DNA of 64,000 bases from a bacterium. GTDB taxonomy: Bacteria; Myxococcota_A; UBA9160; UBA4427. The notes under the pieces were generated by a model. That model saw only the letters and a program-made list of their open reading frames with translations, was not told the DNA's origin and did not search any database. The translations under genes were made by a program, and so were the position numbers. Location: assembly GCA_031413515.1 (NCBI GenBank), contig JANOFF010000015.1, forward strand, positions 1,591 to 65,590, written 5' to 3'. Positions 6,248 through 19,034 of the stretch are shown piece by piece. The first letter of the stretch is position 1. Every line of letters begins with the position of its first letter.

Positions 6248-7222
6248 CTATTCGGCGCCCGGCTCGACGCGTTCGCCCGGTCGGGAGTCGCCGGGTCGCA
6301 CGAAGTCGGCCGCAACGACGCTGCCGAGGCGCGCGACGTTTGCCGCCTCGACTTGCACCACGAAACGGTCGCTGTCGGATTTCACGATCGCCTGGCCACC
6401 CTCGATCACGCCGACCGCGTATCCATCGACGACCGACTGATCGCTCGCTTCGAGGGTCCAGCTGATCCGCGGGCCGGCGCCGAGTCCGTACTCGGGGAGC
6501 ACTTCGGTGCCGAGGGGTGTGACCAGCGTCAGCGCCGTCACCTCGGCGAGGAACTTCTCGATCGCCTCGGAGTCCGCCCGTGTGTCGGCGGGCGCGTCGG
6601 CGACCGTCCAGCCGTCTGCGCTGCGTTCGACGCGAAGTGTGCCGCGCTCGTTCTCGACAGTGAAAGAGCGGATCTCTTCGATCGGCACACGGACGAATTC
6701 GCGCGACCAGTACGCCGACGCGGTATCGGCGAGCGCGAACTCCGAGATCCCGTCGGCCAGATACACGTCGTCCTCGTCGGCGAACCGCACGCGGATGCTG
6801 TTGCTGCGGTCCGCACCCACGATGAGCTCGCGTTCGGTCCCGCCGGCCGACAGTTTCACCCGACGACCGTAGTCTCGTTCTCCGACCGAAAGCGCGTTGT
6901 GGCTCGATGGGCGGGTCGCGATCGGCGCGCGGACGCGCAGATCGAGCAGCTGCGTGATCAGCTGCTCGACCTTCACGGCATCGGCCGGGTAGCCGTTCGA
7001 CGAGTCGATCGTCCAGCCGGCTTCCGTGCGCCGGAGCTTCAACCCTCCGGCTTCACTGCCCTCGACCGGCTTCCGCGCGATCTCGATCCCGGTGATCGTC
7101 GTCGCGTCGAGGGCGAGCAGCGGACGTGCGATCTGCGCTGATCGGTCGGCGGGCCACCACGTGAACAGCGCGAGCGCGAGTTGCGCGACCAGCAGGATCC
7201 CGAGCACCCGGGTCGTTTTCAT
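6248..7222 (-). CDS. DUF4340 domain protein (accessory to Gld-type ABC system)
   Basis: N-terminal TM anchor, two W...P/AD repeat units (GWTIDSSNGYPADAVKV; GWTVADAPADTRADSEAI); ATGA overlap with upstream gene. Confidence 0.75.
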   Translation of the reverse strand: MKTTRVLGILLVAQLALALFTWWPADRSAQIARPLLALDATTITGIEIARKPVEGSEAGGLKLRRTEAGWTIDSSNGYPADAVKVEQLITQLLDLRVRAPIATRPSSHNALSVGERDYGRRVKLSAGGTERELIVGADRSNSIRVRFADEDDVYLADGISEFALADTASAYWSREFVRVPIEEIRSFTVENERGTLRVERSADGWTVADAPADTRADSEAIEKFLAEVTALTLVTPLGTEVLPEYGLGAGPRISWTLEASDQSVVDGYAVGVIEGGQAIVKSDSDRFVVQVEAANVARLGSVVAADFVRPGDSRPGERVEPGAE

Positions 7223-10077
7223 GACGCGGCTCCAGCGCTCGGCAGCAGGACGCGCACACGGCCGAGTCTTCGAGCCACGAGGATCACGCCGGCCAGCAAG
7301 GTGAGCGACGCCGCATAGCAACCGAGTTCCCATCGCCAGGTCTGGTCTTCGTCGAGCGGAATCAGCGTGCGCGCGAAACTGCCGCTCGACCGGATCTGCA
7401 GCAGATCGGTGTCCTCGACCGACCAGTCGATCAGGTTCTGCACGAACTGCAGATCGGGGCGATGCACCTCGCCGCCCATGCGACTCGCGAGCTGCACCAT
7501 CAGATCGGAGATGATCTCCGACGAGCCGATCACGCTGAGCCGCGCGTCGGGGAGGGAGGTCTTCAACGTGTCGTCGATGCCGGCCGGTGCACCGTCCGGA
7601 CCGGGCTGCGCGAGCGGTGACGGGCGATCCGCGAAGGCGCTCGGGAAGACGCCGGTCAGGCTGGCGGCCAGCACCACGCGCCCGATCTCGCCTTCGGGCC
7701 CGAAGCCGACGCCCGGGAAGCGCTCCATGTCGGGCTCGATGCGGCCGCTCGTGTTGCGCCAGCTCGCGTCCGAACTGGACAACAGCGATTCGGCGCTGAC
7801 GCCGTCGGGCGGTGCGACGACCAGAGGCGATGCCCACGGCGTCGTCACGTTCTGCAGGCCGACCAGGGCGGGATGCCCCGACGCCATACCGTCCCGGCGC
7901 ACGTCGGGGAAGAACGGATACGGAAGCATCTCGACGCGCTGCACCCGGAACATCCCGCGCTGCTCCTCGACGGGCACGGGGAACGAAGCGTTCTGCGGAT
8001 CCATCACCAGCGAGGACTCGACCGTCACGCCGTAGCGGGCGAGCAGATCGAAGATCGGGCTCTGATGCGGCGCGGCGTCGAGGCGTCCCTGGTCCACGCC
8101 GATCGCCGTCCTGCCGGCGAGCACGATCAGCTTGCCGCCGCGCATCAGGTACTGATCGATCGCGTACTGCTGCACTTCGCCGAGCGGACCCGGCTTGCCG
8201 ATCAGCAGCACGTCGATCTCCTGCGGCACGCGACCGTCTGCCAGGTCGACGGTCTGCACCCGGTAGTCCTCGCCGTAGACCTCTTCGAGGGCCCGGTAGT
8301 CGCGCTCGGGCGGCGGGGGCTGCATCTGCGGCGGCAGCTGCGGGTTCGGCGGCGGGGCGATCGGATCCTCGGTGTAGATGCCGAGGGTCTTCAGCTGCCC
8401 GGGACTCGCGCGGCGGATCGCCGCCTCGAGGTCGGCCTTCAGCTCGACCTCACCGACCGCCGAGCGCGGGCTGAGGCGCAGCACTTCGTCGTCGGTCTCG
8501 AGCAGCATGTCGAAGTAGAAGGTGCGCTGCGCGAACAGATCGGCGGCCAGGGGGCGGATCCCGTAGTCGTCCGCGAGCTTCCTGGCCAGCTCGGGATCGC
8601 TGCCCGGATCCACCTCGGCGAAGACCAGCTTGCCCTCCGACGCACTCGCGAGCCCGGCGGCGATCGTGCGGATGTGACCCGGCACCGCGGCGAGGGACTC
8701 GGGCAGGTTCGCCGGCGTGGCGTACAAGGTCAGCTTCACACCGCCCGGGATGCGGGCGAAGATCGATTCCATGTTCTGGAAGTCGCGCGACACGCGCTTG
8801 ATGGTCCGCGTCAGGTCGTACTCGGGGTTCGCGAGTCGGACCAGGATCTCGTCTTCGTTGGCGCTCACCTCGATCAGATCGTCGAAGCCGAGCACCTCGA
8901 ACTGATCTCCGTAGCGCACCACGATGTGCAGGAACGAATTGACGACCGCCTGTTGATGGCGGTCCGAGACCTGGAACGGCACGCTGCGGATTCCGTAGCG
9001 CTCGCCGATCTCCTGCTCGAGGGCGTCGTCGGCGCTGGGGTCGGCGATGCGGAGCGTGACGTGACCGTCGCCCGCGACCTCGATCTCCTCGAGCAGATCT
9101 CGCAGCTGCGGGACCAGCGGCGCCAGCAGTGGGTGCGTTCGGTCGGAGAAGTAGGCGTCGATGTACAGCGGCTCCGCGAGGCCCCGGAGCGTCGCCGTGG
9201 TAGTCGGGCTGATCGAGTACTGGCCTGCCTCGGTCAGATCGATGCGGAGGAACGAAACCGGGGCCAGCCAGAGATTTGCGGCCACCACGTTCAGCCCGAC
9301 GAGGCCGGTCACGAGAGCGAGGGCACGCGCCTGGCGGCCGCCCGCCTCGCTGCCGCGATCGATCCGGTCCAGTTCGAGGAAGTGCCAGTTCAGCACCAGG
9401 AAGAAAGTCGTGAGCCCGACGTAGTAGGCGAGGTCGCGAAGATCGAGCACGCCCCGCTCGAGGCTCTCGAAACGCGAACCCGTCCCGAGCGCGCGCAGCA
9501 CTTCGCCGACTGTCTGGCCGAACAACTCCGTCAGGGGGCCGCTGCCGATTGCCACCAGCACGCTGCCGATCACACCCGTCAGCATCAGCGCGACCACTTG
9601 ATTGTCGGTTCGCGCACTGACACACAGGCCGATCGAGAGATACGTGGTGCCGAGCAGCAATCCTCCCACGTAGCCGCCGATCACCGGGCCCCAGTCGAGA
9701 TCACCGAGCAGCGAGACCATCCACGGGATCGGCAGCGTCAGACCGAGCGCGATCGCGATCAGGATCGTGCCGGCGATGAACTTGCCGAGCACGAGATCGC
9801 GGGTCGGGACGGGCAGGCTGAGCAGCACCTCGAGGGTGCCCATCTTGCGTTCCTCGGCCCACTGGCGCATCGCGATCGCGGCGACCAGCAGCACGAGCAG
9901 GGCCGGCAGCCAGGCGAACAGCGGACGCACGTCGGCGAGGTTGCGGGCGAAGAACCCCGAGTAGCCGAAGAAACTGACGAGCGTCGCGAGCAGGAAGACG
10001 CCGAGGAAGATCAGCGCGATCGGCGAACCGAAATAGCTCCGGAGTTCCTTGCGCGCGATGATGGCCGTGGCGCTCAT
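7219..10077 (-). CDS. Fused GldF-like ABC permease / GldG-like auxiliary domain protein
   Basis: IARKELRSYFGSP, WAEERKMGTLEVLLSLP, RIDLTEAGQYSISPTT, IDQYLMRGGK, FVQNLIDW, C-terminal TM. Confidence 0.85.
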   Translation of the reverse strand: MSATAIIARKELRSYFGSPIALIFLGVFLLATLVSFFGYSGFFARNLADVRPLFAWLPALLVLLVAAIAMRQWAEERKMGTLEVLLSLPVPTRDLVLGKFIAGTILIAIALGLTLPIPWMVSLLGDLDWGPVIGGYVGGLLLGTTYLSIGLCVSARTDNQVVALMLTGVIGSVLVAIGSGPLTELFGQTVGEVLRALGTGSRFESLERGVLDLRDLAYYVGLTTFFLVLNWHFLELDRIDRGSEAGGRQARALALVTGLVGLNVVAANLWLAPVSFLRIDLTEAGQYSISPTTTATLRGLAEPLYIDAYFSDRTHPLLAPLVPQLRDLLEEIEVAGDGHVTLRIADPSADDALEQEIGERYGIRSVPFQVSDRHQQAVVNSFLHIVVRYGDQFEVLGFDDLIEVSANEDEILVRLANPEYDLTRTIKRVSRDFQNMESIFARIPGGVKLTLYATPANLPESLAAVPGHIRTIAAGLASASEGKLVFAEVDPGSDPELARKLADDYGIRPLAADLFAQRTFYFDMLLETDDEVLRLSPRSAVGEVELKADLEAAIRRASPGQLKTLGIYTEDPIAPPPNPQLPPQMQPPPPERDYRALEEVYGEDYRVQTVDLADGRVPQEIDVLLIGKPGPLGEVQQYAIDQYLMRGGKLIVLAGRTAIGVDQGRLDAAPHQSPIFDLLARYGVTVESSLVMDPQNASFPVPVEEQRGMFRVQRVEMLPYPFFPDVRRDGMASGHPALVGLQNVTTPWASPLVVAPPDGVSAESLLSSSDASWRNTSGRIEPDMERFPGVGFGPEGEIGRVVLAASLTGVFPSAFADRPSPLAQPGPDGAPAGIDDTLKTSLPDARLSVIGSSEIISDLMVQLASRMGGEVHRPDLQFVQNLIDWSVEDTDLLQIRSSGSFARTLIPLDEDQTWRWELGCYAASLTLLAGVILVARRLGRVRVLLPSAGAAS

Positions 10078-11036
10078 GCCGCAGACTCCGGTCGGTCGGC
10101 GGTGGCGTGCCGTTCATGCAGCCGTGTGAAGAACGCTTCGAGGGTGTCGCGCTGCACGGCGGCACCGGCAATCCGCCAACCCGCGTCGCGGGCGACTTCG
10201 ATCGCGGCGGGCACCGGGTTCTGGCCGGCCGCGCAGTCGAGCTCGAAGCGCGAGTAGCCCGGGTTCTCGGCGTCGGGGCCGAGGGAGCGCGTCGCTTCGA
10301 TGCCCGGGAGCGCCGACAATCGCGTAGCCACCGACACCGGATCATTGGCGGCGAGCGAGAGCCGGACGGTGCGACTCGACAGCAGGTCGCTGATCCGGCC
10401 GTCCGCGGCGATCCGCCCCTGGATCAGCACCACCACGCGATCGCAGACGGCCTCGATCTCCTGGAGGATGTGGGTCGAGAGGATGATCGTCGTGCGCTCG
10501 GCGAGGCGGCGGATCAGCTCGCGGATCGACTGGATCTGGGCGGGATCGAGGCCGTTGGTGGGCTCGTCGAGCACCAGGACTTCCGGAGCATGCACGATCG
10601 CCTGGGCGAGTCCGACGCGCTGGCGATAGCCCTTCGAGAGCGTGTGGATCGGCGTGCCGAGCCGGTCCTCGAGGGCGGTGTCGTGGACTGCGCGCAGCAC
10701 GGCCGCGTCGATCCGATCGGCCGGCACACCGCGCAGCGCCGCCATCATCTGCAGATACTGCTGCACGGCGAGTTCGGGATAGAGGGGTGCGTTCTCCGGC
10801 AGGTATCCGATCTGGCGCTGGGCGGCCGCGCGATCGCGGGCGACGTCGATCCCGCCGACGCGAACCGAACCGCCGCTCGGCTCGAGGTAGCCGGTCAGCA
10901 GCTTCATGACGGTCGTCTTGCCCGCGCCGTTGTGGCCGAGCAGACCGACGACCTCGCCGCGCTCGATTTCGAGTGAGATCGAATCGACGGCTCGGACTTC
11001 GCCGTAGTTCCGGGTCAGATCGCGTATCGAGATCAT
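10074..11036 (-). CDS. ABC transporter ATP-binding protein (GldA-like)
   Basis: Walker A GHNGAGKTT, signature LSKGYRQRVG, Walker B LVLDEP, STH; start ATG 11036. Confidence 0.92.
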   Translation of the reverse strand: MISIRDLTRNYGEVRAVDSISLEIERGEVVGLLGHNGAGKTTVMKLLTGYLEPSGGSVRVGGIDVARDRAAAQRQIGYLPENAPLYPELAVQQYLQMMAALRGVPADRIDAAVLRAVHDTALEDRLGTPIHTLSKGYRQRVGLAQAIVHAPEVLVLDEPTNGLDPAQIQSIRELIRRLAERTTIILSTHILQEIEAVCDRVVVLIQGRIAADGRISDLLSSRTVRLSLAANDPVSVATRLSALPGIEATRSLGPDAENPGYSRFELDCAAGQNPVPAAIEVARDAGWRIAGAAVQRDTLEAFFTRLHERHATADRPESAA

Positions 11037-11261
11037 GCGGGAGGGGCAGGCTCCTCGGGTCCGACGCACGCGGAAGGCTCCGGCATGACGACCGGCGGGC
11101 GCATTGTATTGCGAACAACCATCGGGGCCGCAAGACACCGGGTCGTCGCCGTGGGTTCCGTCGGTCGGATGAAGTGCGGTTTCCGTCGGGCCGATCGGTA
11201 TGCTCGGCGCGACTGCGCGGGAACACACGCGACTCGACGGGCCATGGAGGAGACCACGCAG

Positions 11262-12032
11262 ATGGGCACCATCGCGATCAGTGGCTGTGCGACGGGGATC
11301 GGGGCCGCGACGCGCAAGCGTCTCGAATCCGACGGGCATCGGATCGTGGGCGTCGATTTGCGCGATGTCGAAGTGCCGGCGGATCTCGCGCACGCCGACG
11401 GGCGGGCTGCCGCGGTTCGAGGCGTGCTCGAGCAGTGCGAGGGGCGGCTCGACGGCGTGGTGCTGTGCGCGGGGCTCGGAGGCCACATCGGGGATGGCGC
11501 GCGTGTCGCGTCGGTCAACTATTTCGGCGTCGTCGAACTTCTCGATGGCCTGTTTCCCGCACTGCGCCGCGGCACCGACCCATCGGCGATCGCGATCTGC
11601 TCGAACAGCGCACAGCTTGCGACGTCGATCGGCGAGTCGTCGCTGGTGGCCGCTTTCCTCGCGGCTGACGAGGCCGAGGCCCGACGGCTGGCACGCGACG
11701 AATTCGCCGGTCAGTCCGTCTACATGATGAGCAAGAACGCGGTTGGCCGCGCCGTGCGTCGGCGGGCTCTGGCGTGGGGCGAAGCGGGAGTCCGGCTGAA
11801 CGCGGTGGCGCCCGGCCCGATCATGACGCCGCTGCTGCAAGCGGCGCTCGACACACCCGGTGATGGCGATGCGATCCGCGCCTTCAAGGTGCCGATCGGT
11901 CGCACGGGTCGCGCCGACGAGATCGCGGGCGTCGTCCGCTATCTGCTCGGCTCGGAGGCCGCCTATGTGCATGGCGCGATCTGGTATGTGGATGGCGGTG
12001 CCGATGCACTGATCCGACCGGATCGTTTCTGA
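11262..12032 (+). CDS. SDR oxidoreductase, 3-alpha-hydroxysteroid dehydrogenase-like
   Basis: ISGCATGIG, SVNYFG, YMMSK (YxxxK), VRLNAVAPG, VDGGADALIRPDRF; GGAGG RBS. Confidence 0.85.
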   Translation: MGTIAISGCATGIGAATRKRLESDGHRIVGVDLRDVEVPADLAHADGRAAAVRGVLEQCEGRLDGVVLCAGLGGHIGDGARVASVNYFGVVELLDGLFPALRRGTDPSAIAICSNSAQLATSIGESSLVAAFLAADEAEARRLARDEFAGQSVYMMSKNAVGRAVRRRALAWGEAGVRLNAVAPGPIMTPLLQAALDTPGDGDAIRAFKVPIGRTGRADEIAGVVRYLLGSEAAYVHGAIWYVDGGADALIRPDRF

Positions 12033-12041
12033 AGGCAGTGG

Positions 12042-12800
12042 CTAGACAATCTGCGGCAGGATCTCGCTGATCGAGCCGCGCAGCGAGAGATCAGCGAGGA
12101 AATCCATCTCGGTGGGCTCGCCGTTCAGGATCACGATGCGGGCGCCGCTGTCCTTCGCGATCGGCACCACGCCCGCGATCGGATAGACGCCGAGCGTCGT
12201 CCCGATCGCGAGCATCAGATCGCAGTGCCTCGCGGCCTGCTCGGCACGTCGGAGATCCTCGGCGACCAGTCCCTGGCCGAACGAGATGGTGGCCGACTTG
12301 AGGATGCCCCCGCAGTGGCGACACGGCGGATCCGCCTCGCCGGCGCGCACGCGATCGAGCGCACGCGCCATCGGCGCGCGCTCTGCGCAATCGAGACACA
12401 CGACTTCCCGGAGCGAGCCGTGGATCTCGACGATCCGCTCGGGCGAGTTGCCCGCCGTGTGGTGCAGGCCGTCGACGTTCTGCGTGAGCAGCGCCTCGAG
12501 GCGACCGCTCTGTTCGAGCTTCACCAGGGCCGCGTGTCCCGCGTTCGGCCTGCGCTCGCTGCGCGCACCCTCGAGCTTCATCTGCCAGGAGCGCTTGCGG
12601 ACCTCGGGATCGGCGACGTAGTGCGCAAGCGTCGCCATCTTCTCGGCCTCGGGATTGCGCGTCCAGAGTCCCTGCGGTCCACGGAAGTCGGCGATCCCCG
12701 AGTCGGTCGAGATGCCGGCGCCGGTCAGCACCGCGATGTGCTCGGCGGCGGCGATCCAGTGGCGTGCCTGCTCGATGTCGCGATCCAGATCGCTCGCCAA
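12042..12800 (-). CDS. cobB: NAD-dependent protein deacylase (sirtuin, CobB family)
   Basis: TGAGISTDSGIADFRG, TQNVDGLH, EIHGS, two CxxC zinc pairs, IGTTLGVYP; TTG start at 12800 with GAGGAGG RBS chosen. Confidence 0.88.
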   Translation of the reverse strand: MASDLDRDIEQARHWIAAAEHIAVLTGAGISTDSGIADFRGPQGLWTRNPEAEKMATLAHYVADPEVRKRSWQMKLEGARSERRPNAGHAALVKLEQSGRLEALLTQNVDGLHHTAGNSPERIVEIHGSLREVVCLDCAERAPMARALDRVRAGEADPPCRHCGGILKSATISFGQGLVAEDLRRAEQAARHCDLMLAIGTTLGVYPIAGVVPIAKDSGARIVILNGEPTEMDFLADLSLRGSISEILPQIV

Positions 12801-12921
12801 CCCGGCCTCCTCGCTCCGAGCCGATTCTGACGGCGGCGTCGCGGCCCGTAAAGCGGCTGGCCGCATCGCCGATCTGCCAGGCGGCGTCTCGAGGCTCGAA
12901 GGGCTCGCCATCGACCGGCGT

Positions 12922-12992
12922 CGAAAATTTTGTTCGAACAGCACAAAAACACCCGCATTTCGGTGCTTTCGGTCAATTCTAAACGCTGTTCT
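12922..12992. promoter_or_regulatory. AT-rich divergent regulatory region between the sirtuin and the Zorya-III-like operon
   Basis: Unusually A/T-rich for this window; palindrome TGTTCGAACA (12931-12940), GAACAGC...GCTGTTC inverted pair, TTTCGGT direct repeat. Confidence 0.45.
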
Positions 12993-13072
12993 GCACGCTG
13001 CCGAGCCTGGATGCCCGGGCGGCGTCTCGTAGTATGCGCCTGGTTTCGTGGGGGTGGGCACCGCAGCAGGTC

Positions 13073-13124
13073 GGTCGAGAGAACCGGTCGAGAGAATCGA
13101 TCGCCAGAACCGCTGGCCAGAATC
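13073..13124 (+). repeat. Four tandem degenerate 13-bp direct repeats
   Basis: GGTCGAGAGAACC / GGTCGAGAGAATC / GATCGCCAGAACC / GCTGGCCAGAATC, immediately upstream of a GGAG RBS and TTG at 13139. Confidence 0.75.
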
Positions 13125-13138
13125 GAGAGCGGAGCAGG

Positions 13139-14074
13139 TTGGAAGCGACAGCGACGGCCGGATCATCCAGGGCCCCGAAGAGCGACGAGATCCGTGCGGC
13201 CTGTCCGATCGCGGATGCTCTCGGGCCGATCCATCGCCAGCGTCCGGGAACGGACGCCGCCGCCGCCGAGACACGGCGCGTCGATGCGATAGAGACCCTC
13301 GCGACACTGCTCGATCTGACGGGCTCGATGACGCTCGCGGTGCAGCTCGAGTCGGCGGCGCGGCTCGAGCCCATCGCGCCTGCCACGCTGCTGCCGGCAA
13401 CGGATCTCGCCGCGCTGATCCGGGACCGCGCTGATCTGCTGGCCACCGCGGTCGACCGCCGGCTCGCTGAACTGCCGACCAGCCGATCCGCGATCTGGGG
13501 TGCGGCGCGCATGACCGACGAGATCACGAGCCGGGGTCTCGCCGGTGCGAAGCGTGGACGGGGCGCCGCGGCGCTGGCCCGCGAGTCCAGCGATTCGTAC
13601 GGGCTCGCGATTCGTGGACTGCTCGACCGGATCCGCGGCGATCTGCGCGGACTGCGCGCCGAACTCGGCCCGCGCCTCGCGCTGCGCGGTTCGCGCGTCG
13701 CACGCCTCGAGGCCTTCGATGCGCTGGTCGGCCGGGCGCGCGCGGCGGCCACCCATCGCCTGATCGGCCGCATCCCGTCGGCACTCATCGACGACTTCGG
13801 GCTGCGCCTCGAGCTGGCCCTGCAGGCGCTCGATGCGAGCCACGCGGGAGCGGCGATCGCGAGCTGGTACGGACCCGATGGATTCATCACGCAGTTCCAC
13901 GCGGATACTGGCCGCGTGGTGCGGGGCGTGTTCGAACACGATCGCATCGCGCTGCTGGAACTCGTCGCGGCGGCCCGGATTCTCGAATCCGATTCGTCGC
14001 CCGATCGAGCGTCCGACGCAGGCGCGTCGGGCGAGGCGACCCCACAGTCGGATTCAGGGAGGGCACGGCATTGA
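13139..14074 (+). CDS. DUF3348-like protein (Zorya type III ZorF-like)
   Basis: Segments TLATLLDLTGSMTLAVQL, LRGLRAELGPRLALRGSRVARLEAFDALVGRA, IPSALIDDF, GFITQFHADTGRVVRGVFEHDRIALLELVAA resemble the recalled DUF3348 consensus; first gene of a coupled triplet; start uncertain (ORF open from 13034). Confidence 0.6.
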   Translation: MEATATAGSSRAPKSDEIRAACPIADALGPIHRQRPGTDAAAAETRRVDAIETLATLLDLTGSMTLAVQLESAARLEPIAPATLLPATDLAALIRDRADLLATAVDRRLAELPTSRSAIWGAARMTDEITSRGLAGAKRGRGAAALARESSDSYGLAIRGLLDRIRGDLRGLRAELGPRLALRGSRVARLEAFDALVGRARAAATHRLIGRIPSALIDDFGLRLELALQALDASHAGAAIASWYGPDGFITQFHADTGRVVRGVFEHDRIALLELVAAARILESDSSPDRASDAGASGEATPQSDSGRARH

Positions 14075-15336
14075 ACACAGCCATGAAGCGATGGGTGGAC
14101 CAGCTCCGGGTTCGTGGACACGAGCAGTCCGACGCCGCCGCTCCGCTCGGCGAAGCCGTGCGCGGGCTGAACCAACTCGTCACGCAGGCTGAATCACTGC
14201 CCCGCGCCGCGGCGAGTCTCGAGCAGGCGAGCAATCGGATCGACCTGCTCGGCCACGACCTGGCGGTCGCCGTCGAGCGCGTGGCGGGCGAGGTCGTGGC
14301 GGTGATGCGCGACAACCTGCTCGAGCTGCGCGGAGACCTGAAGACAGCGGTCGAGCACACGGGTGTCGTCACGCGTCAGGTCGTCGTGCCGATCGTCGAG
14401 CAGGGTGTCGAGGCGAGCGTACGGATCGCGGGCGATCGGATCGAGGCGTTGGCGGGCACACTCCACGGATTCCTCGACACGCGGAGTGCCGCCGATACGG
14501 CTCTGCTCACGCAGTTCGAGGGCCGACTCGAAGGGCTCGTCCGGCAGCTCGGCGACGAGCAGCGCAGCGTGAGCGAGCGGATCGAACAGGGCGTGCGCGA
14601 GCGGACCGCCACGCTGCTCGAAAAACTCGACGCGACCGCACAGGCGCTCGCGCGGTCCACCGAGGCCCAGCAAGCCGCCATCGCGCTGGCGGTCGAATCG
14701 GCGGAGACCCGTGTCGCGCGGCTCGAGGTCGAGACCGGCCAGCGCCTGCACGCGCTGTTCGAGGCGCTGCGCGAAGGCGCCACGCGCCAGACCGAGTCCG
14801 CGGCTCGTTTCGAGACGACGCTGGTCGAGCGACATGGCGCGCAGGCGAGCGCGCTCGGTCAGGCCTTCGAGCGTCAGAGCAGCGAGCTGACCGCACAGCT
14901 CGTCGCTGCGGGGCGGCAGCTCGGCGAGGTCGCCGCGGTGGTCGCGGCGAGCGGAGCCGAGATGTCGGCGTTGACGGGGGCCTTCTCGCAGGCGGTGGAG
15001 CGACACCGTGAGGCGTCACTGAGCTGGTTGGAGCGACTCGGCGAGGTCGAGGGCGCGGTCGATCGCGCGGGACGGGGTGCGGCCGCCGAGGCACTCGGCG
15101 GGCAACTCGCCGCGACGGAGGAGGTGCTGGCGCGGCAGCTCGAGTTCCAGCGCGAGATGTTCGAGCAGCTCCGGGCGCTGCGCGCCGACTCGACGTTCGA
15201 GGTCGACAGCGACGCGGTCGTCAGCGATGTGCCCGACGAGGACGAGGTCACGCTCGACGGCGTCGATCCCGATGGGACGGAAGACGCCGGCTCTGAGCCC
15301 TGGAACGGAGCGCTGCAAGAGCCAGCGGATGTCTGA
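14071..15336 (+). CDS. DUF802/ZorA-type-III-like coiled-coil protein lacking the N-terminal transmembrane domain
   Basis: Long amphipathic helices; C-terminal EMSALTGAFSQAVE...LERLGEVEGAVDRA...QLEFQREMFEQLRAL matches the recalled DUF802-protein C-terminus; no hydrophobic TM segment; acidic tail; alternative ATG at 14083. Confidence 0.62.
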   Translation: MNTAMKRWVDQLRVRGHEQSDAAAPLGEAVRGLNQLVTQAESLPRAAASLEQASNRIDLLGHDLAVAVERVAGEVVAVMRDNLLELRGDLKTAVEHTGVVTRQVVVPIVEQGVEASVRIAGDRIEALAGTLHGFLDTRSAADTALLTQFEGRLEGLVRQLGDEQRSVSERIEQGVRERTATLLEKLDATAQALARSTEAQQAAIALAVESAETRVARLEVETGQRLHALFEALREGATRQTESAARFETTLVERHGAQASALGQAFERQSSELTAQLVAAGRQLGEVAAVVAASGAEMSALTGAFSQAVERHREASLSWLERLGEVEGAVDRAGRGAAAEALGGQLAATEEVLARQLEFQREMFEQLRALRADSTFEVDSDAVVSDVPDEDEVTLDGVDPDGTEDAGSEPWNGALQEPADV

Positions 15337-15946
15337 CATCGAAAGCCCGGATCGCGTCTGGCTGTCGACGCGGCTCGACGGACTCGAACGCAGCGGGGCG
15401 GACCGCTTCGATCCGGTCGGGGCCGAGTTCGTCGTCGATCTGCTCGCCCGGGGCGAGAGGCTCGGGGGGCGGGCGCGCGATCTGATCGAGGCCCGCGCGG
15501 CCGAGCATCTGACTCGCCTCGAGGACGCGCATCGCGGGGCCTGCGCGCGCGCTCGCGCGGCGCTCGAGGCGCTGGGTCCGGATGCGGTCGGGACGGCGGA
15601 AGTCGAAGCGTTGCAAGACTCGATCGATGCGGGCGATCCGCTGCCCGTCCTGCGGACTGCGCGGCGGTTGTCTGCATCGCCTCCCGTTCCGACGCAGACG
15701 CGCGATGCGAGCCACCGGCGCTATCGCGATGCGCTGGCCGATCTGCAGACCGCGCTCGCCTCGCGACCCGAGCGGAGTGCGGACCCGCAGACCGGTCTGC
15801 TCAATGGCACCCGGTTGGCGGAGCGGATCCTGGAAGAGGCCGAGGCGATCTCGCCGACCTGGCGGCGGAGCCTGGTGGCGAGTCTGTTCGATCTGGCAGC
15901 GTTGATGCACCTGCCCGAGACGCCCGCGCCTCGTCGACGACGCTAG
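15329..15946 (+). CDS. DUF2894-like protein (Zorya type III ZorG-like)
   Basis: LDGLERSGADRFDPVGAEFVVDLLARG...GRARDLIEAR and TGLLNGTRLAERILEEAEAISPTWRRSLVASLFDLAAL resemble the recalled DUF2894 motifs (GADRxDPV; GPLNS..L..SP.Y); 8-bp overlap with upstream gene. Confidence 0.68.
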   Translation: MSDIESPDRVWLSTRLDGLERSGADRFDPVGAEFVVDLLARGERLGGRARDLIEARAAEHLTRLEDAHRGACARARAALEALGPDAVGTAEVEALQDSIDAGDPLPVLRTARRLSASPPVPTQTRDASHRRYRDALADLQTALASRPERSADPQTGLLNGTRLAERILEEAEAISPTWRRSLVASLFDLAALMHLPETPAPRRRR

Positions 15947-15985: not shown

Positions 15986-17062
15986 TCAGCAGCAATCCGG
16001 TCCGGTGTGCTCGTGCTGGCCCGGGTGATCGTCGCGGTGATCGTGCCAATGGCCGCGTCCGCTGTAGGCACCGGACAGCGCGGCTGCGCGCAGCGTGCGC
16101 GCGGGGTCGATCACGCGCGGACCGTCGCGTTCGATGCGGATCGTGGCCCGTTGGCCGTCCCGCAGCGCGCGCTCGCGGTCGCCGTCGAAGGCGAGCAGCC
16201 CGGGGCCGCTGATCTCGATCCGCTCCCCGAGGGCGATGCGTCGCACCTCGGCGACGGCGACCGACCGATACAGGCCCGGCGAGATCGGGGCGAGCAACGA
16301 GCGCCCGCCGCCGTTTCGAGCGGTGCGGACCACGACCCCGAAGTCGTCGTCGACGCCGCAGGGTTCGAGCAGTCCACCGATCGACGACAGGCCGACCGCA
16401 GCGGGTTCAGCGCGGGCGAGCACCAGCGTGTGCATCAGTGCCGGATCGAAAGGCAGCAGGTTTCCGGTGCTGTCCCCCACCATGTGGGCCGCATCGATCA
16501 GCGCGAGGTCGGGCCTCTCTCCGTCGATCTCGATCCGCGCGACCTTGGTCCGCGAGGTCGCCACGTCGAGGGACACGACACCGGACGCGACGAGTCCCGC
16601 GGCGGCGCCCGCCACGGTGGCCTCGAGCATCATCGGAAAGACGTTGTTGGTGCCCGTCGAGAGCGGCAGGATCGGGGCATCGGGCCAGGTTGCGGCGACG
16701 ATCCGGCTCGTGCCGTCGCCGCCGAGCACGGCGAGGGCGCCGCAGCCGGCCTCGCGCATCAACTCGACGGCGGTCACGGTATCCCGCGGATGGCAGCTGG
16801 CCCCGATGTCGCGCAGATCGATCTCGAGATCGACACCGAGCGCTTCGACCGCGGCGTCGCCGATGCGGAAGGGATCTCTCACGAGCACGACGCGCCGGAC
16901 GCCGGCGGCCGCCGCACCGACCAGGATCCGCTCGACCTGATTGCGCTTGGATTCGGGGCTCGAACTCATGGCGCGCGCGAACAGGCGCCGCGCGTCGCGA
17001 CCCGACGAGGGATTGATCACGATGCCGAGCGCGCGGGCTCGAGTCGAGGTTTCGTTCTTCAC
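15986..17062 (-). CDS. ATP-NAD kinase family / AcoX-like protein with His/Cys-rich tail
   Basis: GIVINPSSGRDARRL, LGGDGT, STGTNNVFP, DGDRE motifs; GTG start at 17062. Confidence 0.8.
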   Translation of the reverse strand: MKNETSTRARALGIVINPSSGRDARRLFARAMSSSPESKRNQVERILVGAAAAGVRRVVLVRDPFRIGDAAVEALGVDLEIDLRDIGASCHPRDTVTAVELMREAGCGALAVLGGDGTSRIVAATWPDAPILPLSTGTNNVFPMMLEATVAGAAAGLVASGVVSLDVATSRTKVARIEIDGERPDLALIDAAHMVGDSTGNLLPFDPALMHTLVLARAEPAAVGLSSIGGLLEPCGVDDDFGVVVRTARNGGGRSLLAPISPGLYRSVAVAEVRRIALGERIEISGPGLLAFDGDRERALRDGQRATIRIERDGPRVIDPARTLRAAALSGAYSGRGHWHDHRDDHPGQHEHTGPDCC

Positions 17063-17096
17063 GGCGTCAGACGGTAGCGCCTCGCGGATCGAAACC

Positions 17097-19034
17097 TCAC
17101 GGTGTGCAGTCCGTCGCGACTTTCTCGGCCGCGGATTCGTGGCCGGCGGATGCCGCCTTCGCGAATTCGCGGCAGGCCTCGTCACGCTTTCCCAGCTCGA
17201 GCAGTGCGCGACCGCGGATCCACGATGCATCGATCCAGTCGGGATACAGGGCGAGCAGTGCGTCCGCTTCGGCGAGCGCGCGCTGCGGCGGGCCGAGGCC
17301 GAGCCGCGCCTCGGCGCGACCGAGCAGCGCGGGTGCATGGTCGGGCGCGAGCGCGAGCGCATTCTCGAAATCCCCGAGCGCGGCCGAGTACCGCCCCGCC
17401 GCGCTCTGGGCCAGACCGCGATTGGACCAGGCGAGCGGCCGGTAGGGGTCGGCTTCGATCACGCGATCGAAGTCGGCGAGGGCACCGCTCGTATCGTGGT
17501 TCGCGAGCCGGATCGCGCCGCGATTCAGATACGCGTCGATCGATGGCTCGAGGATCAGGGCCCGGTCGAGATCGCGGAGACCCTCTTCGATCTGTCCGGC
17601 CTGGAATCGCATCACTCCGCGATGACCCAGCGCCTTCGCGAAGTCCGGATCGAGAGACAGCGCCACGTCGAGATCCGTGAGGGCAGCCGTCAGATCACCG
17701 GCCTCATGATGGGCGAGAGCGCGGTTCAGTCGAGCGACCGGCAGATCGGGGTGACGCGCGAGCGTGTCGTCCCAGAGGTGCAGGCTGTCGCGCCAGACCA
17801 GGCTGCGCTGCCACGTCGCGGTCGCGAGCAGCGCCGAATAGACGACCAGCGCCGCGAGCAGCGGTACCCGGATCGCCGGCCAGCGCGCGAGCAGCGCGGC
17901 GCCCGCCGCAGCGATCGCCAGGAAGAAGCCGACGCTCGGCACGTAGGCATAGCGTTCGGCGACCAGCGCGCCGCCGACCGGAATCCACTGCAACATCAGC
18001 AGCACGTTCAAGGTGAAGAACGCGAGCCCGAACGCGACCGGCGGCGCGCGTCGGTGGATGGCCACCGTGAACCCCTGTACGGCCACGAAGCCGAGCGGTG
18101 CGAGCCAGTAGAGGAGGGGCAGCGCGCCGTCGATGCGATCCGGATACGGGTGGAAGGCCGAGAGACCGAACGGGGCGATCAGCAGGCCGAGATACCGACA
18201 GTAGGCGGCGCTCGACAGGGCCAGCCGCTCGAGCAGGCTCCATTCCGATTCGCCGACCAGTTGCCCCACTGCGCTCTGCGTGACGAGGGTGACGAGACCC
18301 GAGACCACGGCGACCGCCAGGAAGGGCAGTTTCTCGATCACGACGCGCAGTGAGAGGATGCGCCGGTCGAACAGCCCGTCGACGAGCAGCAGGGTGGGGG
18401 CCAGCGTGACGGCCGTTCCCTTCGACAGCAGCGAAGCCACGAACAGGAACAGCGACGCCAGGTACGAAAAGGCCGCGCCGCCGCGGCGAGCGTCCGCGCC
18501 CTGTACGTCACTTAGGCAGCGGAGATAGCGGAGATAGGCGAGCAGCGAGGCCAGATAGAAGAAGCCGTAGAGGACGTCCTTGCGTTCGGAGATCCACGCC
18601 ACGCTCTCGACGTGGATCGGATGCAGGCCGAACAGCAGCGCCACGACGAGTGCCACGCCGCGACGGCGCGTGAGGTGGAGTGCGGCGATCGCGGCCAGTG
18701 CGGTGTTGGCCAGGTGCAGGGCACCATTCACGAAGTGATGCACCGCGACGTTGCCGCCGCCGATCGCCGCATCGAGCCAGAGCGAAAGCATCGTGAGCGG
18801 GTGGTAGTTGGCTTTGAAGGGGGTCTGGAACATCGAGACCACCGCGGCCCAGGTGTACTGACCGAACCACGGATTGCCGAGCACGTAGGCGTCGTCATCC
18901 CAGTTCGTCAGCCCGTTGCTGAAGCTCGGCCCATAGGCGACCGCAGTGACGAGCAGGATGGCGAACAGACCCCACCAGGGCATCGCGTCCGCAACCGGAG
19001 TGCGCGCGCAATCCTCTCGAGGCGCCGCAGACAT
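17097..19034 (-). CDS. TMTC-like membrane glycosyltransferase (putative protein O-mannosyltransferase) with C-terminal TPR repeats
   Basis: WDDDAYV, YHPL, HPIHVESVAWISERKD, LLSKG, AERYAY, multiple TMs, ~6 TPR repeats. Confidence 0.8.
   Translation of the reverse strand: MSAAPREDCARTPVADAMPWWGLFAILLVTAVAYGPSFSNGLTNWDDDAYVLGNPWFGQYTWAAVVSMFQTPFKANYHPLTMLSLWLDAAIGGGNVAVHHFVNGALHLANTALAAIAALHLTRRRGVALVVALLFGLHPIHVESVAWISERKDVLYGFFYLASLLAYLRYLRCLSDVQGADARRGGAAFSYLASLFLFVASLLSKGTAVTLAPTLLLVDGLFDRRILSLRVVIEKLPFLAVAVVSGLVTLVTQSAVGQLVGESEWSLLERLALSSAAYCRYLGLLIAPFGLSAFHPYPDRIDGALPLLYWLAPLGFVAVQGFTVAIHRRAPPVAFGLAFFTLNVLLMLQWIPVGGALVAERYAYVPSVGFFLAIAAAGAALLARWPAIRVPLLAALVVYSALLATATWQRSLVWRDSLHLWDDTLARHPDLPVARLNRALAHHEAGDLTAALTDLDVALSLDPDFAKALGHRGVMRFQAGQIEEGLRDLDRALILEPSIDAYLNRGAIRLANHDTSGALADFDRVIEADPYRPLAWSNRGLAQSAAGRYSAALGDFENALALAPDHAPALLGRAEARLGLGPPQRALAEADALLALYPDWIDASWIRGRALLELGKRDEACREFAKAASAGHESAAEKVATDCTP

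Follow-up and report, generated by a model that had tools for sequence, protein, structure and literature searches.

A candidate motor-less form of Zorya type III in a Myxococcota genome

Three overlapping genes and their products

The window, by which we mean the whole 64,000-nucleotide stretch of DNA that was analysed, carries an operon of three co-oriented genes that are coupled by overlapping stop and start codons, as seen in the open reading frame listing and by direct reading (Table 1). The corresponding open frames on the forward strand span 13034..14074, 14071..15336 (TTG start, 421 aa) and 15077..15946. Gene g1 starts with the TTG at 13139, and the recorded protein P0157 has the same length of 311 aa; g3 starts with the ATG at 15329. 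The g1/g2 junction is TTGA at 14071-14074, with a Shine-Dalgarno-like run (GGGAGGG) 8 nt upstream, and the g2/g3 junction is an 8-bp overlap, ATGTCTGA, at 15329-15336. The frames read through without internal stops. The initial annotation had described an overlap-coupled trio of this kind, and both junctions could be read directly from the DNA. GC content by codon position (g1 0.76/0.59/0.80, g2 0.80/0.47/0.85, g3 0.78/0.56/0.81) fits real genes in a genome of about 69% GC. An upstream extension of g2 was considered and rejected; 200 codons are open there, but they include no ATG, GTG or TTG and read as an Arg-rich off-frame of g1.

The Sir2/CobB-like and DAGK-like genes on either side are housekeeping genes that serve as synteny anchors and lie outside the system. 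The first is divergent and the second convergent, and between them they leave no space for a further gene at the locus. The operon promoter presumably lies in the divergent intergenic region. A promoter and terminator scan found neither element for the operon on the forward strand, and its sole sigma-70-like match was on the minus strand.

Table 1. Features of the locus (positions within the window)
Feature	Position	Strand	Description
Sir2/CobB-like deacylase gene	12042..12824	-	Pfam SIR2, E 5.2e-41; divergent upstream neighbour
Divergent intergenic region	12825..13138	.	No coding signal (codon-position GC)
g1	13139..14074	+	DUF3348 protein, 311 aa, soluble
g2	14071..15336	+	ZorA3 homologue of 421 aa, tail part only, starting with TTG; no membrane domain
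g2 tail tip, residues 264-375	14860..15195	+	Region matched by all ZorA3 HMMs
g2 acidic C-terminal extension, residues 376-421	15196..15333	+	D/E-rich, poorly conserved
g3	15329..15946	+	DUF2894 protein, 205 aa, soluble
NAD-kinase/DAGK-like gene	15986..17362	-	Pfam NAD_kinase, 6.3e-6; convergent downstream neighbour

The outer two proteins belong to the families proposed for them earlier. g1 matches Pfam DUF3348 (PF11828) at 26.2 bits, barely over the cut-off of 25, and PADLOC model PDLC00658 at 3e-7; a genome-wide search gave no other DUF3348 match, and its homologues in metagenomes are 68, 58 and 54% identical. g3 matches Pfam DUF2894 (PF11445) at 33.7 bits (cut-off 25) and PDLC00652 at 4.4e-9, with homologues at 75% identity and below. 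Equating DUF3348 with ZorF and DUF2894 with ZorG, as had been done, agrees with the usage in Payne et al. 2021 but not with PADLOC-DB v2, where the labels are reversed ('ZorG3' and 'ZorF3'). Searches of Pfam, PADLOC, NCBIfam and solved-structure profiles revealed no recognisable enzymatic domain in g1, g2 or g3; NCBIfam gave no meaningful match, and alignments of the three against solved structures gave none below E 0.01. A homologue on record, P0148, falls in DUF2894 clusters only, with no structural match at a TM-score of at least 0.5.

g2 resembles the far end of ZorA3. All four PADLOC ZorA3 models (PDLC00647, 648, 650 and 649) recognise its tail tip, at residues ~257-375 and with E values from 2.7e-12 to 7.1e-6. 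The alignments begin only at about model position 574-657, and g2 is aligned only to the last ~110 positions (657-767 of 780 in PDLC00647, E 2.7e-12). The initial annotation had named this protein a DUF802-type ZorA tail. The ZorA part of that assignment stood, but g2 does not match Pfam DUF802 (PF05650) at E<=1, and the full-length ZorA3 of a relative, G011, likewise has no Pfam match. A DUF802 search of the genome also returned 0 matches, which carries little weight as the control search returned 0 too. There was no match between g2 and Pfam MotA_ExbB.

The prediction that all three proteins lack transmembrane segments was upheld: taking a 19-residue window with a Kyte-Doolittle value of at least 1.6 as the criterion, none was found in g1, g2 or g3 (maxima 1.26, 1.43 and 1.06), compared with 2.28 in a relative's full-length ZorA3. 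The start of g2 aligns exactly with the cytoplasmic end of the last transmembrane helix of full-length ZorA3. g2 retains the LPxAA motif of the tail start, and its hydrophobic periodicity is 3.64 residues versus 3.62 in the full-length tail. Like the tail of EcZorA, the E. coli type I protein, it is a long, largely proline-free helix, and its periodicity above 3.6 is compatible with the right-handed bundle described for that system (PMC11946911). At 421 aa, however, g2 has a shorter tail than the 747-894-aa ZorA3 proteins of canonical type III loci.

Among 142 representative ZorA3-tail hits, most are 570-1016 aa long and match at their C-terminal end; the tail tip is the region matched in most of them. 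This tip may be the docking surface for the DUF3348 and DUF2894 partners. The C-terminal extension varies in length and sequence and is acidic in 9/9 rows of alignment A2.

Absence of a type III motor

Ion-driven rotary motors of the 5:2 kind (MotAB, ExbBD, TolQR and ZorAB) are membrane-embedded A5B2 assemblies whose B subunit carries a conserved Asp. The operon has neither a MotB-like B subunit nor a membrane segment. zorB, which encodes a MotB-like, peptidoglycan-binding protein, is absent from the locus, and the 8-bp overlap of g2 and g3 makes an intervening zorB gene impossible. We also searched the rest of the genome (96% complete) for orphan genes of a type III motor, as the initial annotation had suggested, and found no type-III ZorA membrane domain and no true ZorB3. 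The ZorB3 model PDLC00651 scored at most 82.5 bits, over the OmpA-like part only (positions ~43-209), compared with 285.3 bits for a true ZorB3. ZorA3 models matched at the trio locus only, and tblastn with queries from the ZorA3 transmembrane domain gave a best E of 0.64.

It is conceivable that a soluble tail complex docks on a stator encoded elsewhere (TolQR, ExbBD, MotAB-type or ZorA1/ZorB1-like), perhaps through the N-terminal peptide of g2, but we consider this improbable. There are 10 MotA_ExbB matches on other contigs of the genome. On contig C99, a gene for a 744-aa ZorA1-like protein that has transmembrane helices and a long tail precedes one for a ZorB1-like protein; no ZorC/D-like gene neighbours the pair. 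Such a pair is carried by 4/4 trio-bearing genomes of the family, and conservation among the tail-only orthologues of g2 extends to its first ~35 residues. However, the pair occurs in 48/68 family genomes, including 44/64 that lack the trio, and thus shows no specific association with it. The C99 ZorA1-like protein has a tail of its own, and we rejected the idea that this tail shares the ZorA3 tip, as there is no similarity (best E 3.6). No candidate motor lies near the trio, and a literature search found no precedent for docking of this kind.

Relatives of the trio and loss of the membrane domain

In Zorya type III, DUF3348 and DUF2894 flank a ZorA3-type gene, as in the window (Payne et al. 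2021, PMC8565338). We verified the canonical order DUF3348-ZorA3-ZorB3-DUF2894 in a Myxococcales genome, and the trio keeps the order DUF3348, ZorA3 tail, DUF2894 of that reference, as had been claimed. The trio differs in that ZorB and the MotA-like membrane domain are missing and that the genes are set among housekeeping genes. In a 401-genome sample of the phylum, ZorB3 is present in the locus of 13/15 other DUF2894-bearing genomes.

The trio is rare, being found in 4/68 genomes of the family and in 4/61 of the relatives sample; a scan of genome contigs for the locus returned 0 relatives with a single-protein query and 14 loci with an alignment-based query. The syntenic locus in relatives consists of Sir2, the trio, the DAGK-like gene and TPR. 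The Sir2/CobB-like gene adjoins the trio in G005 (70% identity), and the DAGK-like gene is syntenic in G005 (70%), G011 (55%) and the congeners G001 and G002. In these two congeners the Sir2 and DAGK-like genes directly adjoin each other and the trio is cleanly absent.

Some relatives in the family lack zorB but retain membrane helices. G011 has a 789-aa ZorA with four helices and an 8-bp overlap of ZorA and DUF2894, ATGGCTGA, whereas the ZorA of G005 and G004 has two hydrophobic helices. These ZorB-less relatives share the trio with the window, and G005 and G011 also share its chromosomal position. Unlike g2, their ZorA proteins still have hydrophobic helices, which probably anchor them in the membrane. 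In the MotA-like helix, G011 has GLIGG compared with GLLGT in canonical ZorA3, and the Thr of this motif would be the counterpart of the ion-filter Thr147 of EcZorA. The series of four-helix, two-helix and tail-only forms looks like a stepwise reduction of ZorA. G005 has lost the g2 stop, and its DUF2894 match starts only from query residue 73; this damage at the g2/g3 junction looks like decay.

The tail-only form recurs in relatives, as the initial annotation had asked to be checked. g2 has seven other distinct tail-only orthologues of 399-421 aa, 51-76% identical, and the eight sequences form a monophyletic clade (SH-aLRT 99). Invariant columns in this clade are dense at g2 residues 288-371. 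Gene context was read for one of the seven, the metagenome contig L040, which carries the C-terminus of g1, a tail-only g2 and g3 in the same order and with an 8-bp overlap, ATGACTGA. Thus the overlap is common to three lineages, those of the window, L040 and G011. A locus scan of metagenomes returned a single 2-kb contig. Pairs of g2 and g3 homologues with equal longest contigs (3827, 2679 and 16359 bp) merely hint at adjacency.

The trio of the window is therefore not a unique copy among relatives that all carry the four-gene system. Nor is it a misassembly: a 5155-bp contig covers 12464-17500, and contigs from another sample bridge both gene junctions. Parts of the contig that were uncovered in runs X3-X5, and numerous short chimeric joints seen at 85% likeness, were set aside.

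In another Myxococcota family, the 100% complete genome G194 contains a second motor-less trio. It has DUF3348, a 476-aa tail-only ZorA3 (KD19 maximum 0.74) and DUF2894, adjacent or overlapping and without ZorB3; the neighbours are housekeeping genes (RF3, pyrC-like and carA). The two trios are alike in their three components, their tight packing and the lack of ZorB3. The G194 tail differs from g2 in starting further in (PADLOC model position 322 onward), in lacking LPxAA and in having heptad-like ERQ repeats. It groups with a full-length four-helix ZorA3 (SH-aLRT 98), and uniting all tail-only forms in one clade is rejected by an AU test (p=0.012), although the tested group was named after the resemblance of G194 to P0110 had been seen, and G194 is a long branch of odd composition. 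G194 apparently represents a separate, second origin of the tail-only trio, judging from these trees. In its own family sample 22/151 genomes match, and G194 is a singleton; the others have long frames or pieces at contig ends.

We obtained NG86 dN/dS values of 0.45 for g2, 0.36 for the C-terminal part of g1 and 0.56 for the N-terminal part of g3 between the window and L040 (dS 0.84-0.93); as pS of about 0.5 is near saturation, these values are imprecise. The flanking housekeeping genes gave 0.24-0.44, so that the trio lies above most of them. Values against G004, G005 and G011 (0.53-0.70) were set aside because pS of 0.55-0.58 is near saturation. The test of selection proposed at the outset thus gave 0.36-0.56 with intact frames and, like the other proposed checks that were run, came out in favour of the initial annotation.

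These data bear on the possibility that the trio is a dead remnant, left after the loss of zorB, slowly eroding and vanishing from one lineage after another, whose intact frames reflect recent inactivation or chance in high-GC DNA. The trio's clean absence from two congeners, its retention in so few genomes of the family, the damaged junction of G005 and dN/dS values above those of most flanks would all fit such a remnant. Erosion would resemble the stepwise shrinkage of ZorA, and in type I no gene can be deleted without loss of defence (PMC11946911). We nevertheless consider a remnant unlikely. The eight tail-only sequences have a constant length and start point and dense invariant columns down to 51% identity. 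The g2 frames of the window and L040 are both intact over 417/421 aligned residues at a dS of ~0.84, and the 8-bp overlap is preserved in three lineages. The tail-only trio of G194 groups with full-length ZorA3 and not with the clade of the window.

The polarity might also be reversed, with a soluble tail, DUF3348 and DUF2894 as the ancestral set and canonical Zorya III as the product of a later MotA-like fusion and gain of zorB. The tree is unrooted, so that gain and loss are strictly indistinguishable on it. Several observations make this reading very improbable, however. The nearest neighbours of the tail-only clade are two-helix and transmembrane-bearing forms, and the partner of G194 in the tree is a four-helix form. 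g2 begins just where the last transmembrane helix ends, and two-helix intermediates fit reduction more easily. The transmembrane-bearing form is also far commoner, both by the presence of ZorB3 in other loci and by the length of most of the 142 hits.

A model for the motor-less trio

The present view of Zorya centres on the proton-driven ZorAB motor. We think it reasonably likely that the trio is a derived, motor-less form of Zorya type III that consists of a soluble coiled-coil ZorA3 tail, DUF3348 and DUF2894. Gene coupling and co-conservation, which are the basis for proposing a complex, suggest that the three proteins act together, and the trio is probably a maintained soluble tail-ZorF-ZorG complex.

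We propose that the first step was a deletion of zorB in an ancestor belonging to the Myxococcota family of the window, and that it joined the stop of ZorA with the start of DUF2894. The MotA-like domain of ZorA, now useless, may then have shrunk to two of its four hydrophobic helices and later to none, while the tail and both partners would have remained under purifying selection. The tail may still oligomerise into a helical bundle, with DUF3348 and DUF2894 docking at the conserved tip (residues ~264-375). The result would be a free cytoplasmic complex of three proteins, independent of proton-driven rotation and of envelope sensing. Our guess for its role, which we hold to be the most likely one, is that it still serves defence or stress signalling as a sensor or scaffold, with a trigger in the cytoplasm and not in the envelope.

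Such a complex would have to work differently from the systems described so far. For type III, anti-phage activity is reported only with all four genes of the Stenotrophomonas nitritireducens system, in E. coli (Payne et al. 2021, PMC8565338). Regulation of ZorAB has been proposed as the task of type III ZorF and ZorG, and the portions of the Zorya literature searched describe no further role for them. The type I system of E. coli is a ZorA5B2 motor whose tail measures 70 nm. It no longer defends the cell if any gene is deleted, if the tail is truncated in any way or if proton flow is lost (Hu et al. 2024, PMC11946911). Thus, the known mode of action, as far as these sources describe it, would be impossible for a motor-less system. 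The type I tail does nothing unless the motor and ZorB are present, and ZorC and ZorD act as effectors (PMC11946911); the trio has no motor and its partners are others. In the literature listings and passages searched, no motor-less, soluble or ZorB-less Zorya is described.

A conserved lineage that lacks the motor but keeps the tail and both partners argues that the trio is a functional unit alone. It is possible, though less likely than not, that ZorA3 tail, DUF3348 and DUF2894 form an autonomous cytoplasmic machine for which the motor is only an upstream trigger, removed at least twice while the soluble complex went on working. If this is true, it is the tail-ZorF-ZorG assembly that delivers the output of Zorya III, and the motor-less forms are natural separation-of-function variants. 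Alternatively, a defence module may have been exapted for a housekeeping role, which its position between core genes would fit. The change from four to two to no hydrophobic helices at one locus would be a rare stepwise record of the dismantling of a membrane machine.

Three soluble proteins should be much easier to purify and to solve structurally than a membrane-bound motor that carries a 70-nm tail. The binding sites of ZorF and ZorG in canonical systems should become apparent from the way the three interact. Defence-system finders that require both ZorA and ZorB would presumably miss motor-less loci.

Structure and family membership of the operon

Direct reading of the sequence bears out the overlap-coupled arrangement of three co-oriented genes (g1, g2 and g3) that the initial annotation had described. 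The g1 stop codon lies within TTGA at 14071-14074, where g2 begins with TTG, 8 nt downstream of a GGGAGGG run; the g2 TGA lies within ATGTCTGA at 15329-15336, and g3 starts at the same site. Codon-position GC identifies these three frames as coding, as opposed to the antisense ORFs that overlap them. A longer g2 was considered and ruled out: the frame 5' of its start has no stop for 200 codons, but it offers no start codon and looks like an off-frame reading of g1. The operon is flanked by a divergent Sir2/CobB-like gene on one side and a convergent NAD-kinase/DAGK-like gene on the other. The window corresponds to positions 1591-65590 of contig C15 in a 96%-complete genome of 5.88 Mb (206 contigs, ~69% GC).

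Features of the operon and of the ZorA1/ZorB1-like pair elsewhere in the genome
Feature	Location	Strand	Basis or remark
Three ORFs (g1, g2, g3)	window 13139-15946	+	ORF listing
g1 (DUF3348)	window 13139-14074	+	
g2 (tail-only ZorA3)	window 14071-15336	+	
g3 (DUF2894)	window 15329-15946	+	
ZorA1-like protein, 744 aa	contig C99:8180-10414 (= L082:5181-7415)		PADLOC ZorA1 E 4.8e-16; among ten MotA_ExbB matches
ZorB1-like protein	L082:7304-8182		directly after the C99 ZorA1-like gene

The trio is not an artefact. Misassembly had been raised as a possible explanation of its form, but contigs from a different sample span both junctions (13674-14390 and 14995-15447), and near-identical fragments are also present in a run from another study. 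A 5155-bp per-run contig covers 12464-17500 with five differences; this run may be the source sample itself.

Two of the three family assignments made at first sight hold in Pfam. g1 narrowly passes the DUF3348 cut-off (26.2 bits against 25) and g3 matches DUF2894 (33.7 bits, cut-off 25); the PADLOC type III accessory models match g1 at 3e-7 and g3 at 4.4e-9. The third, DUF802, does not: g2 matches neither DUF802 nor any other Pfam family, but it is recognizable as a ZorA3 tail, matching four ZorA3 models at their C-terminal ends only (for example, positions 657-767 of 780). No 19-residue segment of g1, g2 or g3 reaches a Kyte-Doolittle hydrophobicity of 1.6, in agreement with the proposed lack of transmembrane segments, and no catalytic domain was detectable in the three proteins in Pfam, PADLOC, NCBIfam and solved-structure profile searches.

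Type III loci are described by Payne et al. (2021; PMC8565338) as zorAB flanked by DUF3348 (ZorF) and DUF2894 (ZorG), and Mariano et al. (2025) use the same names. Relative to Payne et al., the labels in PADLOC-DB v2 (PDLC00652-658) are swapped: DUF2894 is labelled ZorF3 and DUF3348 ZorG3. The canonical gene order was confirmed in a Myxococcales genome (L031), where DUF3348 is followed in turn by a ZorA3 of 812 aa (four hydrophobic helices), ZorB3 (E 6e-86) and DUF2894.

On the minus strand of the window, at 7219-11972, an ABC-2 permease is fused to a GldG-like ABC_transp_aux domain in a protein of 952 aa. The gene after it encodes an ABC ATPase of 632 aa in which the ATPase domain begins only at residue ~330. 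These genes could be a gliding-type ABC transporter.

Recurrence of the tail-only form

Seven further distinct tail-only proteins, 399-421 aa in length, 51-76% identical to g2 and lacking hydrophobic segments, emerged from word-indexed and exhaustive protein searches. All share the g2 N-terminus; three gene calls begin 13 residues later, at an internal Met. One is encoded on a 2-kb metagenome contig (L040) between the C-terminus of a g1 homologue and a g3 homologue that overlaps the stop of the g2 homologue by 8 bp (ATGACTGA). g1 homologues are 54-68% identical and g3 homologues 47-75%. When a tree was built from the C-terminal 230 residues, the nine rows for g2 and these proteins, eight of them distinct, grouped as a single clade (SH-aLRT 99), and the canonical ZorB-linked ZorA3 proteins as a separate one (SH-aLRT 96). 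The arrangement is not unique to the window, and its relatives do not all carry the four-gene system.

A further tail-only trio was found in G194, a 100%-complete 3.4-Mb genome from another Myxococcota family. It consists of DUF3348, a 476-aa tail-only ZorA3 (model positions 322-773; maximum 19-residue hydrophobicity 0.74) and DUF2894; the first two genes abut without a gap, the second pair overlaps by 4 bp, and RF3, carA and a dihydroorotase-like gene lie alongside. Searches of this genome returned no true ZorB3 and no ZorA3 match besides the trio's own. The G194 tail, which has a long branch and odd composition, groups with a full-length four-helix ZorA3 (SH-aLRT 98), and an AU test rejected a single clade for all tail-only rows (p=0.012), the group having been named after the resemblance was seen. 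The G194 trio is a singleton in its family, where 22 of 151 genomes match and the other matches are long frames or contig-end pieces. G194 apparently represents a second origin of the tail-only form. At the start of the G194 g2 (L069 5537-6967), heptad-like 'ERQxxxx' repeats, roughly nine in number, stand in tandem; longer internal repeats come after them.

In a sample of 401 genomes drawn evenly from the phylum, the DUF2894 model matches 16, the window's included. A ZorB3 homologue (E 7e-53 to 5e-83) is present in the locus in 13 of the other 15; of the remaining two, G194 lacks ZorB3 and the other has a locus too short for a verdict.

Search for a motor and an apparent reduction series

The initial annotation left room for a motor encoded elsewhere. 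In the window's genome, the ZorA3 model and DUF3348 match the trio locus only, and no true ZorB3 was found: matches to the ZorB3 model are confined to OmpA-like domains (82.5 bits or less, positions ~43-209). When the membrane regions of two full-length ZorA3 proteins and the N-termini of the two-helix forms served as tblastn queries, no significant ZorA3 membrane domain emerged (best E 0.64 with the four-helix queries; the best other match, 26 residues at E 0.027, is not significant). By these searches, no type III motor was found elsewhere in the 96%-complete genome.

The genome does contain ten MotA_ExbB matches, all on other contigs. One is the ZorA1-like protein on C99, which has transmembrane helices and its own long tail. 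This ZorA1/ZorB1-like pair has gcvP on its upstream side, an FHA/YscD-like gene on its downstream side and no ZorC/ZorD-like neighbour. The pair is not specifically tied to the trio, because it is present in 48 of 68 family genomes (15 of 19 genera), trio-less congeners included, and no likeness of its tail to g2 was found. The pair resembles a tailed 'orphan' ZorAB-like stator passed on by vertical inheritance.

Homologues of g2 are present in 4 of the 68 genomes of the window's family. The G011 locus, which lacks zorB, encodes DUF3348, a ZorA3 of 789 aa (four hydrophobic helices) and DUF2894, whose gene overlaps the ZorA stop (ATGGCTGA); next come the DAGK-like and TPR genes known from the window. 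In G005, the trio is again enclosed by the Sir2 and DAGK-like genes. The G005 ZorA contains two hydrophobic helices, its g2 frame has lost the stop, and DUF2894 is matched only from query residue 73 onward. The trio of G004 is intact, includes a two-helix ZorA and lies in another neighbourhood. Aligned with TM-bearing ZorA3 proteins, window g2 starts exactly at the end of the last TM helix. Taken together, the four-helix, two-helix and helix-free forms look like a stepwise reduction of ZorA. Two congeners lack the trio cleanly: their Sir2 and DAGK-like genes sit side by side, ~130-175 bp apart.

The MotA-like helix reads GLIGG in G011 versus GLLGT in canonical ZorA3. Hu et al. (2024; PMC11946911) place the EcZorA ion filter at Thr147 and Ser184, contacting ZorB Asp26; we infer that the Thr of GLLGT is equivalent to Thr147.

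These three ZorB-less loci are among 14 in species-representative genomes. In ten of the other 11, ZorA is followed either by an ORF of ~220-250 aa that has a single hydrophobic segment at its N-terminus or by a gap of 650-750 bp; L028 has neither such an ORF nor a DUF2894 match after ZorA.

Some records need comment. The G011 contig (L029 = C348) is titled 'uncultured Spirochaetaceae bacterium', but G011 is assigned to the window's family, and its genes are syntenic with the window's DAGK-like and TPR genes (46-55% identical); it is probably a mislabelled bin. In G005 (L033 5692-7091), the ZorA-like ORF continues past the homologous end into off-frame-looking sequence, which points to a deletion across g2/g3 or an assembly error. 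At L027 (2478-4843), otherwise canonical, a frameshift or sequencing error divides ZorA3 between overlapping ORFs of 335 and 470 aa.

Selection and a working model

Between the window and L040, NG86 dN/dS is 0.45 for g2 (417 aligned codons), 0.36 for g1 (125) and 0.56 for g3 (99), with dS of 0.84-0.93; flanking housekeeping genes give 0.24-0.44 (dS 0.65-1.05) by the same method. Thus, the trio is somewhat less constrained than its neighbours, yet far from neutral, although synonymous sites are near saturation and the figures are therefore rough. Its loss in close relatives and the damage in G005 show the trio to be dispensable and frequently discarded, as is usual for accessory systems. The sequence comparisons favour a maintained soluble Zorya III derivative rather than a dying remnant.

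The Zorya mechanism described by Hu et al. (2024) cannot operate in a trio that lacks a motor. As a working model, we propose that the g2 tail would be a helical-bundle scaffold and that its conserved tip would hold the DUF3348 and DUF2894 proteins. This proposal draws on gene coupling, co-conservation and the tail-like hydrophobic periodicity of g2 (3.64 residues).

DUF2894 proteins, motor-less and canonical, have a conserved LHLPExPxPRRRR-like basic C-terminal tail, and the tail-only ZorA proteins have an acidic D/E-rich C-terminal extension (15196-15333 in g2). The two C-termini may be a charge-complementary pair.
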